This document shows, in pieces, positions 6,898-15,969 of a stretch of 64,000 nt of DNA. The notes below the pieces were generated by a model, which was not told the origin of the DNA, ran no database searches, and was given only the letters and a program-made list of their open reading frames with translations. Position numbers and translations under genes: made by a program. Position 1 is the first letter of the stretch, and the number at the start of each line of letters is the position of its first letter. The stretch is from an uncultured bacterium (lineage in GTDB: Bacteria > Patescibacteriota > Minisyncoccia > Phycocordibacterales > Phycocordibacteraceae). The stretch is taken from the NCBI GenBank assembly GCA_947085985.1, contig CAMTYL010000003.1, positions 298,108-362,107 on the forward strand, given 5' to 3'.

Positions 6898-6969
6898 TAT
6901 CCGAGAGGATGGAACAAACAAAACGCCGAGGGCTAGCCCTCGGCGTTTTGCGTGCTACCATAGCGACAT

Positions 6970-8428: not shown

Positions 8429-8647
8429 GTTCTTACTAGTGTACACGGAGTGCGAAACTTAAATTGCACGTATAGGTTGAGAGTGGTAGTTCAAGCATTA
8501 TATGGACCTCGTAGGTTCATGTATCAAATCAAATTGATCGCTGGTTGCCGCACCATTTCCTACTTCGCCTCGTCTGTGTTATGAATACCGCGGACTGTTG
8601 CAGCAGCTGTGGGCGTCGTGCCTGTACCTGCAACAAAAGGAGGTCAC

Positions 8648-9137
8648 CATGACCAGCACCAAGACTAGGAGCTGTGGCGGGTGCACCGCCTGTTGCCATA
8701 CCCATTCCGTGGATATGGACGGGGTCTATACACCCCGATTCAAAGACTGCTCCCACTGCGTAATCGGAGTGGGTTGTGGTGTGTACGAGTCGCGTCCGTA
8801 CTCCTGTTCTATATACCGCTGCCTCTGGCTTACGGGAATGCCCGATCATATGCGGCCCGACAAGTTTGGCGTCGTGCTTGATGTCTGGACGGTGCCGAAC
8901 GAAACAATGCGGTTCCTAAACTTTTGGGAAGTATACCCCGGAAGACTCAACGAACCTGACGTCGGAGAGTTCATAGAGGGACTGCTCGCCACTCGACCCT
9001 ACGTGATCATCTGCCGCCGGCCGGATTTCGCGGTAGATATCCGCTTTCCCCACGGTATTGATATCGGGGAACAAGAGCGGCTCACGCGAACGATCCTGAA
9101 AGAGATACAAGTGCAGGGCGAATACGCCAACGCGTAG
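8648..9137 (+). CDS. YkgJ-family Cys-cluster protein (CxxCxxCC putative Zn/Fe-chelating domain)
   Basis: 'CGGCTACC' motif near N-terminus plus further Cys; RBS 'AAAGGAGG' 6 nt upstream of ATG; GC-rich. Confidence 0.55.
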
Positions 9138-9155
9138 TGGCGCGCACCACGACAC

Positions 9156-9189
9156 AGGGCCCGACGAGCAATCGTCGGGCCCTTTCTGC
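9156..9189 (+). terminator. hairpin terminator AGGGCCCGACGAGCAATCGTCGGGCCCTTTCTGC; copy 1 of an identical 34-nt element
   Basis: Perfect 10-bp GC stem followed by TTTCTGC; identical copy at 10429-10462. Confidence 0.6.
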
Positions 9190-9247
9190 ATACGCAGTTT
9201 TACAAATTAGTTCCGGGCGGCCCCTGGTGGGGCCGCCCGGTAATGGC

Positions 9248-9853
9248 TCAATCAATAACCTGGCAGTAGCGCTGGACCGACAGGTCGAGCGTACCCCACG
9301 TGGTCCACTGCCGCAGGAACTGAAGCGCGAAGCGCATCTGATGCTCCTTGGACTTGCCGTAAAGGGCCTCTTTGAGGCGACCCTTAGCAGCCCACAGTCC
9401 CGGGAGGAACCAGATTTCCCAGTACAGACCCGAGTCACCCCGCCGCGATCGCATGCAGGCGAATCCGCACTCCGCCAGAAGTTCCGCGTTGGCCCTGTAC
9501 CCTTCCGGAGTGTAGGAGTAGCCGCAGAGATGCTGGATGAAGATAGATTGCGACTGCTCGTTCCAGTTCACAATCGGCTCAAACAGTTCGGCCTGGTAGT
9601 GCTCCGGATTCTTTTCTTCACGAGTCGGCGTTCGCCACTGCGGAAGCATGGCGTCCTCGGTGGGGGCGGGCACCGGCTCGTGCGCGGGGGCGAATTCAAG
9701 CCGCCCGCCGACAAGCCGCGCCCACCAGTGTCCATGCATCATGCCCTGGATCTTCTCGCCTTCTTCTTCGGTGAGGTCGGAGATAGTTACCTCGCCTCGT
9801 GGACCTCCACGAGACATGGAAATTCGCGCACGAGGCGGTTCGTTGCTGTCCAT
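9248..9853 (-). CDS. hypothetical GC-rich protein (201 aa)
   Basis: Protein-like composition (W/Y/F-rich) in contrast to the Arg-rich antisense ORF 9137..10291; perfect hairpin CCGGGCGGCCCCTGGTGGGGCCGCCCGG (9213-9240) immediately after stop. Confidence 0.5.
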   Translation of the reverse strand: MDSNEPPRARISMSRGGPRGEVTISDLTEEEGEKIQGMMHGHWWARLVGGRLEFAPAHEPVPAPTEDAMLPQWRTPTREEKNPEHYQAELFEPIVNWNEQSQSIFIQHLCGYSYTPEGYRANAELLAECGFACMRSRRGDSGLYWEIWFLPGLWAAKGRLKEALYGKSKEHQMRFALQFLRQWTTWGTLDLSVQRYCQVID

Positions 9854-9955
9854 GGTCTAGCCCTTCTGTTGAACATGCCTGCCTATGGTGTACAGGAGAT
9901 GGAAACAAATCGCAACCAGGAGATTTCCGCCGCTTTTGACAACACAGAAATATGC

Positions 9956-10291
9956 ATGCACACTATGGGCAACGGGACCGGCCCCTACTACCCGTTAAGG
10001 AGGTGTTCTTTGAAAGAATGCTTTAATACCGTCGCCGCTCTCAGGACCAAAGCCCTAGAGCGCGGTGTAGTACTTCGTACGCCCCACGACGCAGCCGCTC
10101 GGTCCGCCCTAAAGCAGACCGACGAATGGGTCCTCGCTACCAAGGACCCGCGGACAGGCTGGATAGTTGTGCCGACGCACGACAACCGAGGACTCCCCGA
10201 GGAGCAGTGGTACGCGCTCTGGAAAGACATGAAGGTGGAGCTGGAAGCACAACAGTGCGACGGCTCCTGGCACGACTACTTCACGCAATAA
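9956..10291 (+). CDS. hypothetical GC-rich protein (111 aa)
   Basis: In-frame ATG downstream of TTGACA (9936-9941); followed by RBS+58-aa ORF (10309-10485) and terminator copy 2. Confidence 0.4.
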   Translation: MHTMGNGTGPYYPLRRCSLKECFNTVAALRTKALERGVVLRTPHDAAARSALKQTDEWVLATKDPRTGWIVVPTHDNRGLPEEQWYALWKDMKVELEAQQCDGSWHDYFTQ

Positions 10292-10428
10292 GTTTCTGGG
10301 AGGAAACAATGAACGCGTGTAATTGCCCCGTGCGACTGGACACCCCGACCGGTGTCCGTCGCACGGGTTTTTATTATCAGCGCGGCGGCCTTTGCAATAT
10401 GTATGTAGACCTGCGCACCAAACCGGAA

Positions 10429-10462
10429 AGGGCCCGACGAGCAATCGTCGGGCCCTTTCTGC
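10429..10462 (+). terminator. identical second copy of the 34-nt hairpin terminator element
   Basis: Exact sequence match to 9156-9189. Confidence 0.6.
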
Positions 10463-10486
10463 CAGCTTTCGCGGTCGCTATGTAGC

Positions 10487-11050
10487 CTAGTACCAAACAC
10501 CGTCTACCTTGCGTGCCTCAAGCGTAATTCTTTCTGAGTCTGATATGTGGATTTTGACACGAGCTACATTGCTCTCAAACGTCCACTCGGTTCTTTCAGC
10601 GGTCAACATGTCACGAGTAATAGACATGGAAGCCAAGAATTCAATGATGTTCTTGAAGTCTTCGTCGGAAGTTGCAGCGAACTGAGCCTGTGCACTTTCT
10701 GACACGGCCTTTGCTAGATACGCTCTAATTTCGGGCAGATTACCCGTTTCAAGAAGTGCCTGGCGTTTAAGGAGCGCCTCTATCACGAGAGCTTTCTCGC
10801 TAGTGTCTGTGGCGCTCGCCTGCGACTGTGCAGGAGCGGCCGCAGTAGGCGCAGTTGCTGGCGTGGGAGCCGCGGACACTGGCACAGAATCATTTTCTTT
10901 TTCCATGGTGTTTGTTTCGGTTGACGGTGTAATAGCAGTATCTGGAATTGGTGCAACGTCCGTTGCTTGATTGGTGTATAGGTATGCTCCGACACCCGCC
11001 ACAATACTACCTACTACGGCAAGTAAAATTATTACAATTTTCATCTTCAT
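10487..11050 (-). CDS. hypothetical membrane-anchored protein with Pro/Ala/Thr-rich linker
   Basis: N-terminal TM 'IVIILLAVVGSIVAGVGAYL'; start codon abuts conserved promoter module. Confidence 0.45.
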   Translation of the reverse strand: MKMKIVIILLAVVGSIVAGVGAYLYTNQATDVAPIPDTAITPSTETNTMEKENDSVPVSAAPTPATAPTAAAPAQSQASATDTSEKALVIEALLKRQALLETGNLPEIRAYLAKAVSESAQAQFAATSDEDFKNIIEFLASMSITRDMLTAERTEWTFESNVARVKIHISDSERITLEARKVDGVWY

Positions 11051-11095
11051 ACCAAAACTATATCATTTCTGTACTTCTGGGAATTAATGTTGACC
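11051..11095 (-). promoter_or_regulatory. copy 1 (divergent variant) of repeated promoter module; core AATGATATAGTTTTGGT directly 5' of ATG
   Basis: Shares core with copies at 12662, 13355, 14363, 15265, 15916. Confidence 0.5.
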
Positions 11096-11098
11096 AAC

Positions 11099-11998
11099 CT
11101 ACGAAACAAGTTTTGAAAGAAGTGCCATGCGTACCGTAAGTCCGTAGCCTGCTTGTTTGAAATACACTGCTTTCTCCGACATATCTACGTCCGGCGCTAT
11201 TTCATCAACCCGAGGAAGCGGATGCATGATTATAGAGCCCTGCTTCATGGCGTCAGCATGTGCACGAGTAAGTACGTACTTCCCCTTCAATTTTTCATAC
11301 TCGCCAGCATCTGCGAATCGCTCCTTCTGAATTCTGGTCATGTAAACCACGTCTGCATCTGCGAGCACAGATTCCAAGTCCTCTGTTTCTATAACCAGCA
11401 CTCCCCGTGCGCGCAGATACTCAAGTATGTCGGCACCCATGCTAAGTTCTGGTGGAGACACAAAAGTAAGAGAAATATTTTCGTATCGTGCTAAAAGATA
11501 TGCGAGTGACCGTATGGTCCTTCCGTGCTTAAGGTCGCCCACTGCAGTTATGTGCAGACCATCCGTCTTCCCCACCTCCTTCTGTATCGTGTACAAATCT
11601 AAAAGTGCTTGCGTGGGGTGCTGTCCAGGCCCATCACCTGCATTTATTACTGGAATAGTAGCAACCTGCGAGGCACGATTACACGCTCCTTCTTCAAAGT
11701 GACGCAGCACCACTACATCCGCGTACTGATTCATCATCTTCATCGTGTCTTCTATCGTTTCGCCCTTGGCCGCCGACGAGAACTCTTTGGCATTTTCAGT
11801 TGAAATAACCGTACCGCCGAGCCGCTGCATCGCAGATTCAAAAGAAAGCCTTGTCCTTGTAGAAGGCTCATAGAAGAGCGATGCCATAATCTTTCCCTGA
11901 AGCGAGGTATTGCGGACTCCTTCCAGTGTGTCTGCCAGTGCAAATAGCTCCTCAAGTCCCTTCCTATCAAATTGCTGCGATTCAAGTACGTGCTGCAT
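11099..11998 (-). CDS. pyrB: aspartate carbamoyltransferase catalytic subunit
   Basis: 'STRTR', 'HPTQ' and 'HPLPR' signature motifs. Confidence 0.85.
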   Translation of the reverse strand: MQHVLESQQFDRKGLEELFALADTLEGVRNTSLQGKIMASLFYEPSTRTRLSFESAMQRLGGTVISTENAKEFSSAAKGETIEDTMKMMNQYADVVVLRHFEEGACNRASQVATIPVINAGDGPGQHPTQALLDLYTIQKEVGKTDGLHITAVGDLKHGRTIRSLAYLLARYENISLTFVSPPELSMGADILEYLRARGVLVIETEDLESVLADADVVYMTRIQKERFADAGEYEKLKGKYVLTRAHADAMKQGSIIMHPLPRVDEIAPDVDMSEKAVYFKQAGYGLTVRMALLSKLVS

Positions 11999-12013
11999 GA
12001 CTTCTTGAATCTT

Positions 12014-12661
12014 CTAGAACTCGTGAGCTTCTTCCTCTGCGAGATTTACAAAAGAAATTCCTACCGCTTCTAGCTGGCCGCCTATCCAGCGCGGAATGGA
12101 GGTCTGTCGGTAGTTCTCTGTATACATGGCGTCGTGTATCGGGAATGCTACGCGTGGGTTGATAGTTTTCGCGTAATCAATAGCGGTAGAGATTTTATGC
12201 CATGGTCCGCCCGTTGGGAGCGCGAGAATTTCCACCTGCTTATTTGGCACATCGTGGAGCGCGTCTCCTGGCATGTAGAGCTTACCGGCGATTAGAAAGC
12301 CGGTGTTTCTACATGGTGACGAGTCGCCGTAGATAATCGCATGCTCGGTACCAAAGCTTTCTATGGACACCCCTGCAACGTCCACTGTCTCGCCAGGTTC
12401 AATAGCAGTCCACGCAATACCCGCCTCTGTCAGCTTCTCACCTACTCCTGCATGCGTAATCACCTGCGCATCGGGATTTCTCGCGAGCACTTCCTGCAAC
12501 TTCGGTATATCAAAGTGGTCCTGGTGCTCGTGTGTGATAAGCACGGCAGAAAGGCCGGACACGTCCGGCACGGTAGCGCTGTATGAACCAATGTCGGTAA
12601 GAATTTTCACTCCGTCAATTTCCACCAGCAAACAGGACTGTGCATACTTCGTGATGTTCAT
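12014..12661 (-). CDS. MBL-fold metallo-hydrolase
   Basis: 'ITHEHQDH' HxHxDH zinc-binding motif; start abuts promoter module copy 2. Confidence 0.7.
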   Translation of the reverse strand: MNITKYAQSCLLVEIDGVKILTDIGSYSATVPDVSGLSAVLITHEHQDHFDIPKLQEVLARNPDAQVITHAGVGEKLTEAGIAWTAIEPGETVDVAGVSIESFGTEHAIIYGDSSPCRNTGFLIAGKLYMPGDALHDVPNKQVEILALPTGGPWHKISTAIDYAKTINPRVAFPIHDAMYTENYRQTSIPRWIGGQLEAVGISFVNLAEEEAHEF

Positions 12662-12700
12662 ACCAAAACTATATCATTCCCGCATTCCCAAGAATTGGTG
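12662..12700 (-). promoter_or_regulatory. copy 2 of repeated promoter module (ACCAATTCTTGGGAATGCGGGAATGATATAGTTTTGGT|ATG)
   Basis: Extended -10 'TGATATAGT' 6-7 nt upstream of ATG implies leaderless transcript. Confidence 0.55.
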
Positions 12701-12714
12701 GTGGCTGACCTGAC

Positions 12715-13320
12715 TCACGTAAGAATCTCTTGCTGCGTCAGAAACACTTCCACGGCATCGGCAAGCTTTTGGTGACCAGCACTGTTAGGATGCAGTCCAT
12801 CATCTAGGTCCTCGTTAGTAAGAAGCGGGTATACATCAAGTAATGGGAGGGCGTGTTCGCCAGCAACCTGTTTGATAAGCCCGTCATAGAGCCGGACACT
12901 TTGGTTGTCGTAGTTTTGGTCCTTGTCAGTCCACGGAATTGGCGTGAGCTTACTGTCTTCTACCTGGTTTAGTCCCAAGAAAAATACAGAGTCGGTAATC
13001 TCTCGAGCTTGCGCAACAAGCGCATGTAGATTTGCAACAAAATCCTCTGGCAAGACTCTTGTGTTCTCTCGAGTACCTGTGTACTGCGAATCATTAATAC
13101 CAATTGCAAAAAGAATGACGGTGCCTGCGCTAGACTTTCTAGCTTGTGCCTCAACCTTGAAACGAGCAAGGAGGTGCCCCGTGTTGTCTGCAGAAATACC
13201 GCAATTATAAAAACTGATATCCTGCTCTGCGTACTTGTTCCGTAATCTCGTGACCCAACCACCTCCCTCATTATCGTTCGCGCCCCAAGTGATACTGTCG
13301 CCGAATACTATAATTCTCAT
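12715..13320 (-). CDS. SGNH/GDSL-family hydrolase
   Basis: 'IIVFGDSITWG' GDSL block I, later 'GLHPN', 'DGLHP' blocks. Confidence 0.7.
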   Translation of the reverse strand: MRIIVFGDSITWGANDNEGGGWVTRLRNKYAEQDISFYNCGISADNTGHLLARFKVEAQARKSSAGTVILFAIGINDSQYTGTRENTRVLPEDFVANLHALVAQAREITDSVFFLGLNQVEDSKLTPIPWTDKDQNYDNQSVRLYDGLIKQVAGEHALPLLDVYPLLTNEDLDDGLHPNSAGHQKLADAVEVFLTQQEILT

Positions 13321-13354
13321 GGAGTAAGTGTATCAAATATGCCCCGTCCTTACC

Positions 13355-13393
13355 CCAAAACTATATCATTCCTGCGTTTCTAAGAATTAGTTC
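13355..13393 (-). promoter_or_regulatory. copy 3 of repeated promoter module, here 35 nt upstream of the start of 12715..13320
   Basis: CCCCAAAACTATATCATTCCTGCGTTTCTAAGAATTAGT. Confidence 0.5.
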
Positions 13394-13408
13394 TGACAGA
13401 TCCATTTA

Positions 13409-14362
13409 TTACCGATGCGAAGGGCTGGATTGCGCAGTACTAATCTGTTCAAGGCGGGTAAGCATTTCAGGTGGAGAGTATGCCGACACCTCTGTAAAAG
13501 CCCTGTCTAGAAAGGCCTGTATGTCCGCTGGCCTTGCATTAGCAAGCGCGGGGGTTGCTTCAACAGCACGCACCATACGGTCCGCTATAACTGCGGACAT
13601 AAGCGAAGAATGGCTTCCATCGAACAGATCTGTTTCTGACTTAAAATCAAATCCCGTTTCTGCTCGCCCGTCACGAGTTGGTTCCATTCCGAGTGCAGAA
13701 AGGTGCTGAGTCACTATGGCGCGAATTCCAGCTGACTGCTCTTCCTTTCCATAATGCACAACGAGAGAGTCTGGGTGCTTAAGAAAATACTGCAAGTTCC
13801 CTGGAATTTTAAATGAGATGCGGTCGCCATTCTTTATAGAAAGGTCAGACAGGTCTTTCGCGAGGGCCGGCAGAGCATTCTGAAATGCCATCACTCGTGC
13901 AAGCACCTCTTCCGAGCTACCCGAACCAGCTGGGACAGTAAAGTATTCCTTGCGTGAAATTACCACCTCAACGGGCGCTCCTTCTATGGTCTTCTTCATG
14001 CGCGTTCGGTTCCTTTGCGCGTCCTTCGTGCCTGTATACGAAAACCAACCAATATCGTTATCTACCGGAAGCCCCTGAGCGATGGCTTCGCGAGCTACAT
14101 TCTTGAGATTTTCTTCGTACGCCTGTGCTGCGGCTTCGCCTCCAATGTCTTTTTCTAACCTCTTCAGTTCTGTGTTTGATACCCGATTCACCATGTAACT
14201 GTAAAGAGAGCGCGTGAGCCACTCACGCGAAGGATTATTCTTAAGTTGCATGACGATTGATTGCAAACCCTCCTCGCGGGCAGAATCAGTAAACTTTTCT
14301 GGCATCGTAACGGTCGCAGAAACCTGTTCCTTATCCGCACGTACCTTCTCAATTCCCTCCAT
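13409..14362 (-). CDS. hypothetical protein (317 aa)
   Basis: Long ORF, start abuts promoter module copy 4; no recognised family. Confidence 0.4.
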   Translation of the reverse strand: MEGIEKVRADKEQVSATVTMPEKFTDSAREEGLQSIVMQLKNNPSREWLTRSLYSYMVNRVSNTELKRLEKDIGGEAAAQAYEENLKNVAREAIAQGLPVDNDIGWFSYTGTKDAQRNRTRMKKTIEGAPVEVVISRKEYFTVPAGSGSSEEVLARVMAFQNALPALAKDLSDLSIKNGDRISFKIPGNLQYFLKHPDSLVVHYGKEEQSAGIRAIVTQHLSALGMEPTRDGRAETGFDFKSETDLFDGSHSSLMSAVIADRMVRAVEATPALANARPADIQAFLDRAFTEVSAYSPPEMLTRLEQISTAQSSPSHR

Positions 14363-14401
14363 ACCAAAACTATATCATTCCTGCGTTTCCAAGAATTGGT
14401 G
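14363..14401 (-). promoter_or_regulatory. copy 4 of repeated promoter module
   Basis: ACCAAAACTATATCATTCCTGCGTTTCCAAGAATTGGT immediately after 'cat' of the start codon. Confidence 0.55.
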
Positions 14402-14440
14402 GGAACGACACCTTTTAGGCGACGCTAGATCTTTATACGG

Positions 14441-14470
14441 GTTGACAAAGTGTATATTATAGTGTTATAC
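14441..14470 (+). promoter_or_regulatory. sigma70-type promoter TTGACA-N18-TATACT for 14508..15188
   Basis: Consensus -35; transcript would start ~35 nt upstream of ATG. Confidence 0.5.
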
Positions 14471-14507
14471 TATATGCAGTTTTCCCAACCACATCGAGGC
14501 TTGCGAA

Positions 14508-15188
14508 ATGACCTTTGCGAATGAAATCGAAGACCGGCCCGTTCCGGTTATCAAGGTGGAGCCCACCGAGCGGGGTTTCCTGCGTAGCGACTTCAGAGAC
14601 ATCTACGGAACTTTCTGCTCGCTGCAAGAGAGCTCTCTGGCATCTGAAGACGCCATCTGGCTCGGCACGAACATCGAAGGTGTCGGTGGCAATCGCATGC
14701 ACCTCGACCAGAACATGGTCTCGGCGATGCTGCCCTATCTCATGCACTTCGCCAAACACGGCAACCTGCGTCTGAAGAGGATCGGTGTCGTCGGTTACTG
14801 TCCGCCCACCAAGTTCGACGAGAACGAGGCGCGACGTGCAATCATCGACGCCTACGACCAACTGGCCGACCTTTACTTCGACCAATCGATCGCTATCGTG
14901 TCTGGCCTGAGCGACGTCGGCGTGTTGGCCATCGCCTATGCGGAAGCGCAGAAGCGAGGGTGGATGACCGTGGGCGTGGCCTGCGAACGCGCCATGGAAC
15001 ATCCGCTGTTCCCCGTGAACGTTCCGATCGTCGTTGGCGAAGAGTGGGGTAACGAAAGCCCCATGTTCGTCGGCATGCTCGACGGCATCGTCCGCATCGG
15101 CGGCGGCAAGCAGTCCATCCGTGAGACCGAAGAGGTCAAAGCGCGCGGACTGCCCACGCTCGAGTACGACGTGTCCGTCTTCGACTAG
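14508..15188 (+). CDS. GC-rich protein, possibly Rossmann-like LOG/SLOG/DprA-superfamily (low confidence)
   Basis: Pattern 'IAIVSGLSDVGVLAIAYAEAQKRG...TVGV...IVRIGGGKQSIRETEE' resembles LOG/SLOG 'sGxxxGxM...GGxGTxxE' layout; own promoter and terminator (15210-15246). Confidence 0.3.
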   Translation: MTFANEIEDRPVPVIKVEPTERGFLRSDFRDIYGTFCSLQESSLASEDAIWLGTNIEGVGGNRMHLDQNMVSAMLPYLMHFAKHGNLRLKRIGVVGYCPPTKFDENEARRAIIDAYDQLADLYFDQSIAIVSGLSDVGVLAIAYAEAQKRGWMTVGVACERAMEHPLFPVNVPIVVGEEWGNESPMFVGMLDGIVRIGGGKQSIRETEEVKARGLPTLEYDVSVFD

Positions 15189-15264
15189 TTCCCGAACCCC
15201 GTGTACGAGGAAGCCCCGCGCTTACTTGTATGCGGGGTTTTCTTTTAGGTTTCACGAGGCCAAT

Positions 15265-15300
15265 CCCCTATATCATTCCTACTTTTCCAAGAATTGGTAG
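15265..15300 (-). promoter_or_regulatory. copy 5 (truncated, orphan) of repeated promoter module, not adjacent to any minus-strand start
   Basis: CCCCTATATCATTCCTACTTTTCCAAGAATTGGT lies between the terminator of the GC-rich + gene and the stop of 15319..15915. Confidence 0.45.
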
Positions 15301-15318
15301 TGACTGTTTCTCTTATAC

Positions 15319-15915
15319 CTACAATGAGCGAATGTCTTCTACAATTTCAGGAAATTCGGATTGGTTGAAGTGTTGTCGGCCGGTGAACACACGCACAGTC
15401 GCAGTTTCGAGCTCGCGCTGGTAGCGCTCAAAACTTGAGAACGGCACAACTTCGTCGTCTTTGCTGTGGTAGAGAAATACTTTCCCTCCCTGCTTTTCTA
15501 ATCCTGAAAGGTTGGTGAGAATATTGAAGTCCACGTATGGATTCTCGTCCTGAGCATTGTATGGCGCAGCCACTAGGAGTGTGGCTTTTATGCTTTTTGG
15601 ATACACCTCTTCAGACAAATACTTCGCTAGGAATATCCCTCCGAGCGAGTGCCCAATGAAAATTACACCTTCGTCCAGTAGTGGCACGTACTTATCAAAG
15701 ATAATTTTCCACTCTGCGTAGCGCGCATTTGATGGATTTGGCATGCGCGGAGCAATCACTTCGTACGTGTCTCCAAGAGTTGTGGCGAGGCCCCCTTTCC
15801 AACTAGTAGTGCGGGAGTTGTCCAGACTGACCTCCCACTGCTTCAGCGACTCTATGTATTCCTCGTACGTGTCATATGCGTCCCCGCCATGAATCACGAA
15901 TACCTGTTGCTTCAT
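15319..15915 (-). CDS. alpha/beta-fold serine hydrolase (YdeN-like)
   Basis: 'GHSLGG' nucleophile elbow; start abuts promoter module copy 6 (15916-15952). Confidence 0.65.
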   Translation of the reverse strand: MKQQVFVIHGGDAYDTYEEYIESLKQWEVSLDNSRTTSWKGGLATTLGDTYEVIAPRMPNPSNARYAEWKIIFDKYVPLLDEGVIFIGHSLGGIFLAKYLSEEVYPKSIKATLLVAAPYNAQDENPYVDFNILTNLSGLEKQGGKVFLYHSKDDEVVPFSSFERYQRELETATVRVFTGRQHFNQSEFPEIVEDIRSL

Positions 15916-15969
15916 CCCAAAACTATATCATTCCTGCGTTTCCAAGAATTTATAGAAGCTGAGCCGCAT

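Follow-up and report, generated by a model that had tools for sequence, protein, structure and literature searches.

Two kinds of described element come closest to the locus presented here. Phage morons, a concept associated with Hendrix, Juhala and colleagues, are reportedly autonomous promoter-gene-terminator units that are present in one genome and missing between the same neighbors in a relative. Intrinsic bidirectional terminators and 3′-stabilizing hairpins form the other; elements of the repetitive extragenic palindromic (REP) type are also located at gene 3′ ends. The locus lies in a 64,000-nucleotide (nt) stretch of an uncultured, small-genome member of the Patescibacteriota (contig CAMTYL010000003.1 of assembly GCA_947085985.1), referred to as the window. 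It consists of a 34-nt hairpin-forming repeat, here called R, whose two copies enclose a small block of genes. We consider it likely that R is a terminator-type 3′ hairpin of two convergent genes that has been doubled around a 1.24-kb accessory block, and that the locus reflects ordinary gene gain and loss, not a new mobile system.

In outline, the ancestral locus would have held one R common to a rightward Cys-rich gene and a leftward gene for a protein of 187 amino acids (aa), the repeat itself being very stable, with a GC-rich stem, a GNRA loop, and a short UUUCU tail. The 1.24-kb block now inside this junction would comprise two self-contained divergent units: a 201-aa gene with its upstream region and a hairpin, H2, and a 93-aa gene with a terminator, T3. 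With R on both sides of the block, each outer gene would still end in an identical hairpin. The block would then be one of several single- or two-gene modules that have been gained, lost, swapped, and reordered in a hypervariable interval of this Patescibacteria lineage.

Structure and setting of the repeat

R (AGGGCCCGACGAGCAATCGTCGGGCCCTTTCTGC) is present in two exact copies in direct orientation on the plus strand, R1 at 9156-9189 and R2 at 10429-10462, which confirms the repeat as first reported. No third copy was found within the 64 kb even when up to three mismatches were allowed, and the chance expectation is 0 (100 shuffles). Both copies form a perfect 12-bp, GC-rich stem closed by a GCAA loop. 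In R1, which begins 18 nt past the stop codon of the Cys-rich gene, the stem is followed by TTTCTGC. R2 follows the stop codon of the 187-aa gene, a gene of the opposite strand, at a distance of 24 nt. The flanks of R2 are A-rich and T-rich and lengthen its stem to 15 bp (GAAAGGGCCC.../...GGGCCCTTTC, 10426-10459). R is nearly palindromic, so that R1 and R2 are also 87% inverted repeats of each other. The predicted RNA folds reach −31.5 kcal/mol (z = −4.8) for R1 and −41.4 kcal/mol (z = −4.2) for R2 read on the minus strand. Rfam gave sub-threshold hairpin look-alikes only.

Approximately 15 further perfect, GC-rich palindromic hairpins, each unique, are found in the window, many of them at gene ends and several flanked by an A-tract and a T-tract. 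R-type hairpins are therefore common 3′-end structures in this genome. One of the window's hairpins, a 14- to 16-bp perfect palindrome (CAAAACGCCGAGGGCTAGCCCTCGGCGTTTTG) at 6919-6950 after the gene for an S1 protein, has the appearance of a textbook bidirectional terminator and serves as a reference for the hairpin class of the genome. Searches for the core pattern GGGCCCGACGANNNNTCGTCGGGCCC in two collections that do not include the parent genome returned 13 matches from genome_contigs and 5 from metagenome_contigs, all of them single unrelated hairpins and all but one from genomes or contigs of 57-76% GC. The original prediction had raised the possibility that R is a common terminator used at many loci. 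As described below, R is indeed a terminator-type hairpin that occurs independently of the enclosed genes in relatives, but it was not seen at many unrelated loci, with two copies in 64 kb. The enclosed segment had also been described as GC-rich; at 9156-10462 the GC fraction is 0.59 compared with 0.526 for the window, but other stretches of the window reach 0.6-0.7.

An independent short-k assembly (k = 31) contains an exact 1299-nt contig that corresponds to window positions 9160-10458 and ends 30 nt inside each R copy. Contigs carrying the 187-aa gene in that assembly likewise stop 30 nt inside R2. Since the contigs of an independent assembly end inside the R copies, all four inner and outer junctions are real sequence.

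A single repeat and an empty site in relatives

Two relatives carry a single R at the orthologous place. L036 is close to the window (RNR genes at 96% nt identity and S1 protein at 99.5% aa identity), while L051 (Logan SRR28154522) is more distant. In L036, R lies at an equal distance past the Cys-rich gene with the same left flank, and the sole difference is in the loop (GTAA). In L051, the left flank is again the same, and the stem carries a compensatory change from A:U to G:C. Across the four sequences available, a number that makes the comparison statistically weak, 11 of the 12 stem pairs are invariant and the remaining one is changed on both sides (the L051 substitution), and 100% of cells are paired compared with 21-52% after sliding of the partners. 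One of the 34 positions of R distinguishes the window from L036, and the synonymous divergence (dS) of the neighboring Cys-rich coding sequence is ~1. A sequence this close to invariant beside coding sequence that is saturated at silent sites must be under strong constraint. The two copies may therefore owe their exact identity and sharp edges to selection on the hairpin, in which case these features would not show how far the duplication first extended or how recent it is.

L051 also supplies an empty site. There, the Cys-rich gene (78% nt identity), one R, the 187-aa gene (85% nt identity), and an ATCase gene follow in this order, with nothing else between the Cys-rich gene, R, and the 187-aa gene. 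L051 aligns with the window collinearly and without gaps once positions 9190-10462 are removed (8852-9189 joined to 10463-11268), and the sequence flanking R2 on the right is orthologous to that on the right of the single L051 copy. Given this collinearity, the 1,273-bp unit at 9190-10462, which is present here, missing from L051, and made up of 1,239 bp of unique DNA plus one R copy, is a true insertion/deletion polymorphism located exactly at a hairpin common to two convergent genes.

L036 presents a different arrangement. Its single R is followed by a leftward gene, and the 3′ flank of R (TTAC...ATGTAGC) resembles that of L051. L036 also has the block from H2 to T3 (window 9198-10374), with its orientation unchanged and with a 212-aa gene and the Ser-hydrolase gene on its two sides. 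Within the 1,273-bp unit, the parts homologous to L036 are 9198-9242 and 9934-10374, which keep their order and orientation but not their position, and an unrelated 171-aa gene replaces the 201-aa gene between them. The L036 block has R at neither end and no other flanking direct repeat; R lies upstream by the Cys-rich gene, with the 212-aa gene in between. The original prediction had read the repeats as the footprint expected of site-specific insertion or of cassette duplication. They do bracket a real insertion/deletion polymorphism, but site-specific insertion of an att-like kind is not backed, as no recombinase was found and the L036 block is without R.

From the two single-copy relatives, L036 and L051, we infer that the single-R state is ancestral. 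The opposite polarity, in which the two-R state is older, the L051 empty site came from a deletion between the repeats, and the L036 order came from a separate rearrangement, seems to us unlikely. Recombination between the 34-nt repeats would remove precisely 1,273 bp, with one R remaining, as is the case in L051, and because R evolves very slowly, the age of the duplication cannot be read from the identity of R1 and R2. However, L036 and L051 are independent and both have a single R with a TTAC right flank, which neither window copy has in exactly that form. Simple deletion also fails to explain why the L036 block lies on the far side of the gene that follows R, and the origin of the duplication would be left unexplained.

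If a single R was indeed the starting point, we expect the duplication to have come about through ordinary rearrangement at or near the palindrome, not through a dedicated recombinase. The block order is R, B, C in L036 and R, C, R, B in the window, and one candidate route to this difference would be duplication of the segment from R to C with later losses. Another would be illegitimate or homologous recombination at the palindrome during DNA import. R itself presumably terminates or stabilizes transcripts.

Several points weigh against our account. A consensus terminator scan (at least 5 T in the 8 positions after the stem) lists neither R copy. The tail of R is TTTCTGCA on the plus strand, where the T-run is just TTTCT, and CGGTTTGG on the minus strand of R2. 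The label of terminator is therefore based on the position, stability, and conservation of R. The direction of the event is drawn from two single-copy relatives only, and a precise deletion between the copies would give the same empty site. A clean, exact 34-nt direct repeat is also expected from site-specific integration, and our count of R copies covers the 64-kb window. Finally, a longer duplication reaching into the 3′ untranslated region of the Cys-rich gene was considered from GTAG and GCGCACCA, which that region shares with the left flank of R2, and was rejected as not significant (p ~0.09-0.14).

The enclosed genes and their hairpins

The 201-aa gene (9248-9853, minus strand) was found as predicted, together with its own perfect 12-bp hairpin. 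It belongs to an uncharacterized stand-alone family of ~200-aa proteins from Patescibacteria and phages. Close homologues number 33, and at 50% identity the family forms 376 clusters, nearly all of ~200 aa; named members are assigned to Patescibacteria/Paceibacterota. The ratio of nonsynonymous to synonymous divergence (dN/dS) is 0.12-0.15. No match to the protein was found in Pfam, PHROGs, PADLOC, NCBIfam, or a PDB sequence profile search, and tblastn against GenBank phages returned nothing. An AlphaFold2 model (predicted local distance difference test score [pLDDT], 79) has two domains, of which the C-terminal one is ferredoxin-like, and comparison of the model with PDB and BFVD gave generic ferredoxin-like matches only, none of them significant (E > 0.02). 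Residues invariant in the family include Cys110, Cys133, Tyr119, Arg135, Ser136, Arg138, and Glu146. An HUH-like nuclease, suggested by a "QHLCG" strand, the invariant Tyr, and weak fold matches to Rep/NS1 proteins, was considered and rejected as unsupported, because the His of the putative "HLC" motif is not invariant (it is replaced in 3 of 33 homologues), the fold matches fall short of significance, and the homologues are not surrounded by conserved terminal hairpins or repeats.

H2 (9213-9240, minus strand) is the 3′ hairpin of the 201-aa gene, with a predicted fold of −31.7 kcal/mol (z = −5.2). It is kept in L003, L052, and L036, with two compensatory pairs in L052. Together with its outer flank, H2 is 91-98% conserved, beside the 201-aa gene in three genomes and beside the unrelated 171-aa gene in L036 (9260-9287). 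The latter placement indicates that coding sequence was swapped within a few bases of the hairpin. Several breakpoints in the island lie no more than 15 nt from hairpin edges. On its other side, the 201-aa gene is preceded by a conserved region (9854-9900, minus strand), presumed to contain the promoter and 5′ leader, whose 47 nt are 100% identical to L003 compared with 84% for the coding sequence. This region may be an operator or leader element. The 201-aa homologues of L004 and L052 are preceded by a related motif, CTCCTGTACAnCnTAnGCAGG...GTTC. In L003 and L052, where the contexts are different, the 201-aa gene is accompanied by both H2 and the 47-nt upstream region, and the gene, the upstream region, and H2 together have what appears to be the anatomy of a self-contained, moron-like unit with a putative promoter.

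The 201-aa gene keeps no fixed company. No gene co-occurs with it across 18 loci; more than 10 contexts have it without the 93-aa gene, which is missing from every other context examined. At 15 other homologue loci, we found no common flanking repeats (the longest shared word is 7-10 nt) and no conserved terminal hairpins. Two IMG/VR contigs, L037 and L040, carry homologues in phage contexts. One setting is the early region of a Mu-like contig, where the homologue lies downstream of Gam, MuA-like (transposase), and MuB-like genes; another is a phage replication/recombination module with DNA polymerase, SSB, UvsX, a clamp loader, SbcCD, and RusA. In L015 (6001-6624), as in L016 and L017, a gene of the family is located between ftsZ and ftsA, which are normally adjacent, and on the opposite strand; in L005 and L010 it adjoins ybeY-ftsA-ftsZ. 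Other bacterial contexts place it beside NUDIX/PD-(D/E)XK genes or beside LAGLIDADG/HNH genes. Our working guess is that the 201-aa protein could be the product of a phage-derived accessory gene for host takeover, exclusion, or DNA metabolism.

The second enclosed gene is divergent from the first and was originally called as 111 aa (9956-10291, plus strand). The gene is real, but its length is most likely 93 aa, from a TTG start at 10010 that follows AAGGAGG (10010-10291), because the sole outside homologue is of that length and the N-terminal extension shows no in-frame conservation. It is a lineage-restricted orphan: just two matches were found among 5.8 billion proteins, with P0035, the 93-aa homologue, at 78-80% identity. 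Its dN/dS is 0.23, and its structure model is of such low confidence (pLDDT, 64) that fold matches are meaningless. T3 (10327-10372, plus strand), a strong predicted intrinsic terminator of this gene, has a 17-bp stem, interrupted by a single bulge, and a U-run behind it, and its inner part is picked up by the terminator scan. The region 10292-10385, which contains T3 and two further small helices, folds at −48.6 kcal/mol (z = −5.75). T3 is conserved in L036, and homology stops at window position 10374.

A third, 58-aa open reading frame (ORF) (10309-10485, plus strand), which the original prediction described as led by a ribosome-binding site, passes through both T3 and R2 and has no family match. 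In L036, only its first 24 codons, up to T3, are conserved. Because it spans a strong terminator and is not conserved beyond it, this ORF is probably spurious. The four real genes at the locus (Cys-rich, 201-aa, 93-aa, and 187-aa) are all under purifying selection, with dN/dS of 0.12-0.25.

Altogether, these comparisons do not back the proposal that the bracketed unit is a candidate undescribed small system, or that it moves as one piece. The 201-aa gene occurs elsewhere without the 93-aa gene, the 93-aa gene stands beside an unrelated gene in L036, the third ORF is doubtful, and the L036 block has no R ends. The enclosed genes are not linked, and, as far as sequence comparison can tell, they are independent accessory "moron-like" genes and not a functional pair.

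Alternative origins of the repeat pair

An att-like origin, in which a 1,273-bp non-autonomous cassette enters and exits the hairpin with the help of a recombinase provided in trans, or of the 201-aa protein as a hairpin-specific enzyme, and leaves the 34-nt core on both sides, has in our judgment a slim chance of being correct. In its favor, the unit stands between exact direct repeats, the empty site of a relative is precise, and the 1299-nt contig with R at both ends in the k = 31 graph would equally fit a circle. The 201-aa family is found in many chromosomal contexts, including the position between ftsZ and ftsA, and in phages, and the weak matches of its C-terminal domain include HUH Rep/NS1 proteins. 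However, these matches all have E > 0.02 and the "HLC" His is replaced in some homologues, as noted above. No integrase, transposase, or invertase family match was found in the unit or its neighbors. Furthermore, the L036 block has neither R nor another flanking direct repeat, R being upstream beyond the 212-aa gene; the 201-aa homologues at 15 other loci do not share flanking repeats or terminal hairpins; and genomes without the unit at this site still keep R as the hairpin at the 3′ end of the Cys-rich gene. An inversion switch was also considered and rejected, since we found no invertase and no sign of the other orientation, although short-k contigs cannot resolve orientation.

We give a slightly slimmer chance to the idea that terminator hairpins such as R and H2 are recombination joints for the exchange of single-gene modules in Patescibacteria islands. 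On this view, an unrecognized enzyme, possibly of the 201-aa family, would move the 1,273-bp unit as a non-autonomous cassette targeted to hairpins. The family features that might bear on this idea are its wide distribution in these bacteria and their phages, the two invariant Cys residues, the invariant Tyr, and an Arg-rich strand on the ferredoxin-like domain of the model.

It is very unlikely, in our view, that R is a dispersed palindrome of the REP type, or one resembling a miniature inverted-repeat transposable element, that was copied to a second intergenic site independently of the genes in between. The edges of the repeat do coincide with the hairpin and a 6-nt tail, and the flanks of the two copies are not significantly similar. 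However, only two copies are present in 64 kb at up to three mismatches, and relatives have one copy at the orthologous site; what the empty site lacks is the whole 1.24 kb and not just a hairpin; and no relative has the junction of the 93-aa and 187-aa genes without R. No RAYT or Y1 transposase match was found nearby, and the core-pattern scans of the two large collections (without the parent genome) gave unrelated single hairpins only.

Last, an assembly artefact, in which a 1.3-kb piece that really lies elsewhere or on a separate molecule was misplaced through the 34-mer, is in our view the least likely reading: short-k assemblies do break at both R copies and the graph alone is ambiguous, but the 1299-nt contig starts and ends in R, so that R flanks the piece either way, L036 keeps the order and orientation of R, H2, the 93-aa gene, and T3, and a 34-nt repeat is shorter than a read, so that an assembler yielding contigs of up to 426 kb for the 187-aa protein would normally be expected to read through it.

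The variable interval and neighboring genes

The interval from the SNase gene to the Ser-hydrolase/RNR genes is different in every relative compared. In the window, it reads Cys-rich, R, H2-201aa, 93aa-T3, R, 187aa, ATCase, MBL, GDSL, 317aa, and 226aa. The corresponding order is TPM, LemA, Cys-rich, R, 212aa, H2-171aa, and 93aa-T3 in L036; TPM, LemA, H2-201aa, 156aa, Cys-rich (with a different hairpin), 140aa, and 185aa in L003; and RNR, 172aa, 157aa, and 201aa-H2 in L052. In L003 and L052, the 201-aa gene with H2 thus occupies other places in the SNase-RNR interval, beside a 156-aa gene. Over 8556-10374, the island genes are far more diverged from L036 (the Cys-rich gene at 82% nt identity with dS of ~1) than are the core flanks (RNR at 96% nt and S1 at 99.5% aa identity). 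This difference suggests that alleles were replaced by recombination with more distant lineages. A block of ~5 kb at 10376-15338, which contains R2 and the 187-aa, ATCase, MBL-fold, GDSL, 317-aa, and 226-aa genes, lies between T3 and the Ser-hydrolase gene and is missing from that position in L036 and L003.

The Cys-rich gene (8649-9137, plus strand) encodes 162 aa behind an AAGGAGG ribosome-binding site and has R1 as its 3′ hairpin. It had been described as a YkgJ Cys-cluster gene, an identity that family searches did not confirm: the protein has no match in Pfam (E ≤ 0.1) or NCBIfam and matches only phrog_9155 (E = 5e-10), whose function is unassigned. The Cys pattern CGGCTACC is visible in the protein. 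Orthologues are present in L036 (78% aa identity), L051 (79%), and L003 (46%), and dN/dS relative to L036 is 0.125. The 187-aa gene (10487-11050, minus strand) encodes a membrane-anchored protein and converges on the Cys-rich gene at the empty site. Its L051 orthologue, at 81% aa identity, is directly beside the single R and the Cys-rich gene, and its dN/dS is 0.25.

An exact 16-nt motif, AATGATATAGTTTTGG, within a conserved block of ~35 nt (AATTCTTGGAAACGCAGGAATGATATAGTTTTGG), occurs five times on the minus strand (11052-11067, 12663-12678, 13355-13370, 14364-14379, and 15917-15932) and nowhere else in the 64 kb at up to three mismatches. Four of these copies stand a single base ahead of the ATG in consecutive genes (187aa, MBL, 317aa, and Ser-hydrolase), and the motif also precedes island genes in L003, L051, and L052. 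The motif looks like an extended −10 promoter (TGaTATAGT) that would give rise to leaderless mRNAs. A literature search turned up no directly relevant work, either on terminators duplicated at insertions or on leaderless promoters of Patescibacteria.

Implications

Overall, we see routine genome plasticity in this locus: an accessory block sits within a common 3′ hairpin that is now present on both of its sides. For scans of genomes, the case carries a caution, as an exact direct repeat around a group of genes need not be an att site, and a strongly constrained hairpin can remain identical long after a rearrangement. The locus also documents a variable SNase-RNR interval in a Patescibacteria lineage, built of self-contained single-gene units that each have a hairpin and a putative promoter of their own. 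It further brings to light the 201-aa family, which these bacteria share with phages and for which no function or fold relative is known. Only this family and the idea of hairpins as exchange joints hold any upside beyond that.

Comparison with known systems

Several known systems share single features with the locus. Toxin-antitoxin, restriction-modification, and known defense modules were sought in PADLOC, Pfam, and NCBIfam with no match, as the original prediction had supposed from the sequence, and no conserved gene partner was found across 18 loci. A transposon with a target-site duplication would typically leave 2-14 bp, and the duplication here is 34 nt, with no terminal inverted repeats inside the R copies and no transposase match. 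Integron cassettes with attC sites are similar in that they are short promoter-poor or single-gene units bounded by hairpin-forming sites. Unlike attC, R is perfectly palindromic and lacks extrahelical bases as well as GTTRRRY/RYYYAAC core sites, and its copies are identical; no integron integrase match was found among the scanned genes around the segment. Elements bounded by attL and attR resemble the locus in having exact direct repeats around extra DNA and, in L051, a single-copy empty site. In contrast to such elements, the block occurs elsewhere without R at its ends, and R is neither a tRNA nor a gene-end core but a conserved functional hairpin of a neighboring gene. The unit and its repeats do not travel together, as the L036 block is without R and has one gene replaced and the 201-aa gene is found elsewhere without repeats, and no integrase or recombinase match (Pfam, PHROG, NCBIfam, and PADLOC) was found for the scanned genes between 4221 and 16524.

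Intrinsic bidirectional terminators and 3′-stabilizing hairpins provide a closer parallel. R departs from them in its short U-tract (UUUCU), with which it escapes the consensus scan, and in being present twice in identical form when every other hairpin in the window is unique. It resembles them as a perfect GC-rich stem-loop 18-24 nt past the stop codons at a convergent junction, conserved with a compensatory change and of the same structure class as the ~15 other hairpins of the window. Similarly, the 201-aa gene differs from a phage moron in that it lies in a bacterial chromosome island, not in a prophage, and has a promoter that is putative, and the insertion here is a two-gene divergent block with a duplicated flanking hairpin. 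Like a moron, it has a conserved upstream region and a hairpin, moves with them as a unit, is missing at the same junction in relatives, and has homologues in phages.

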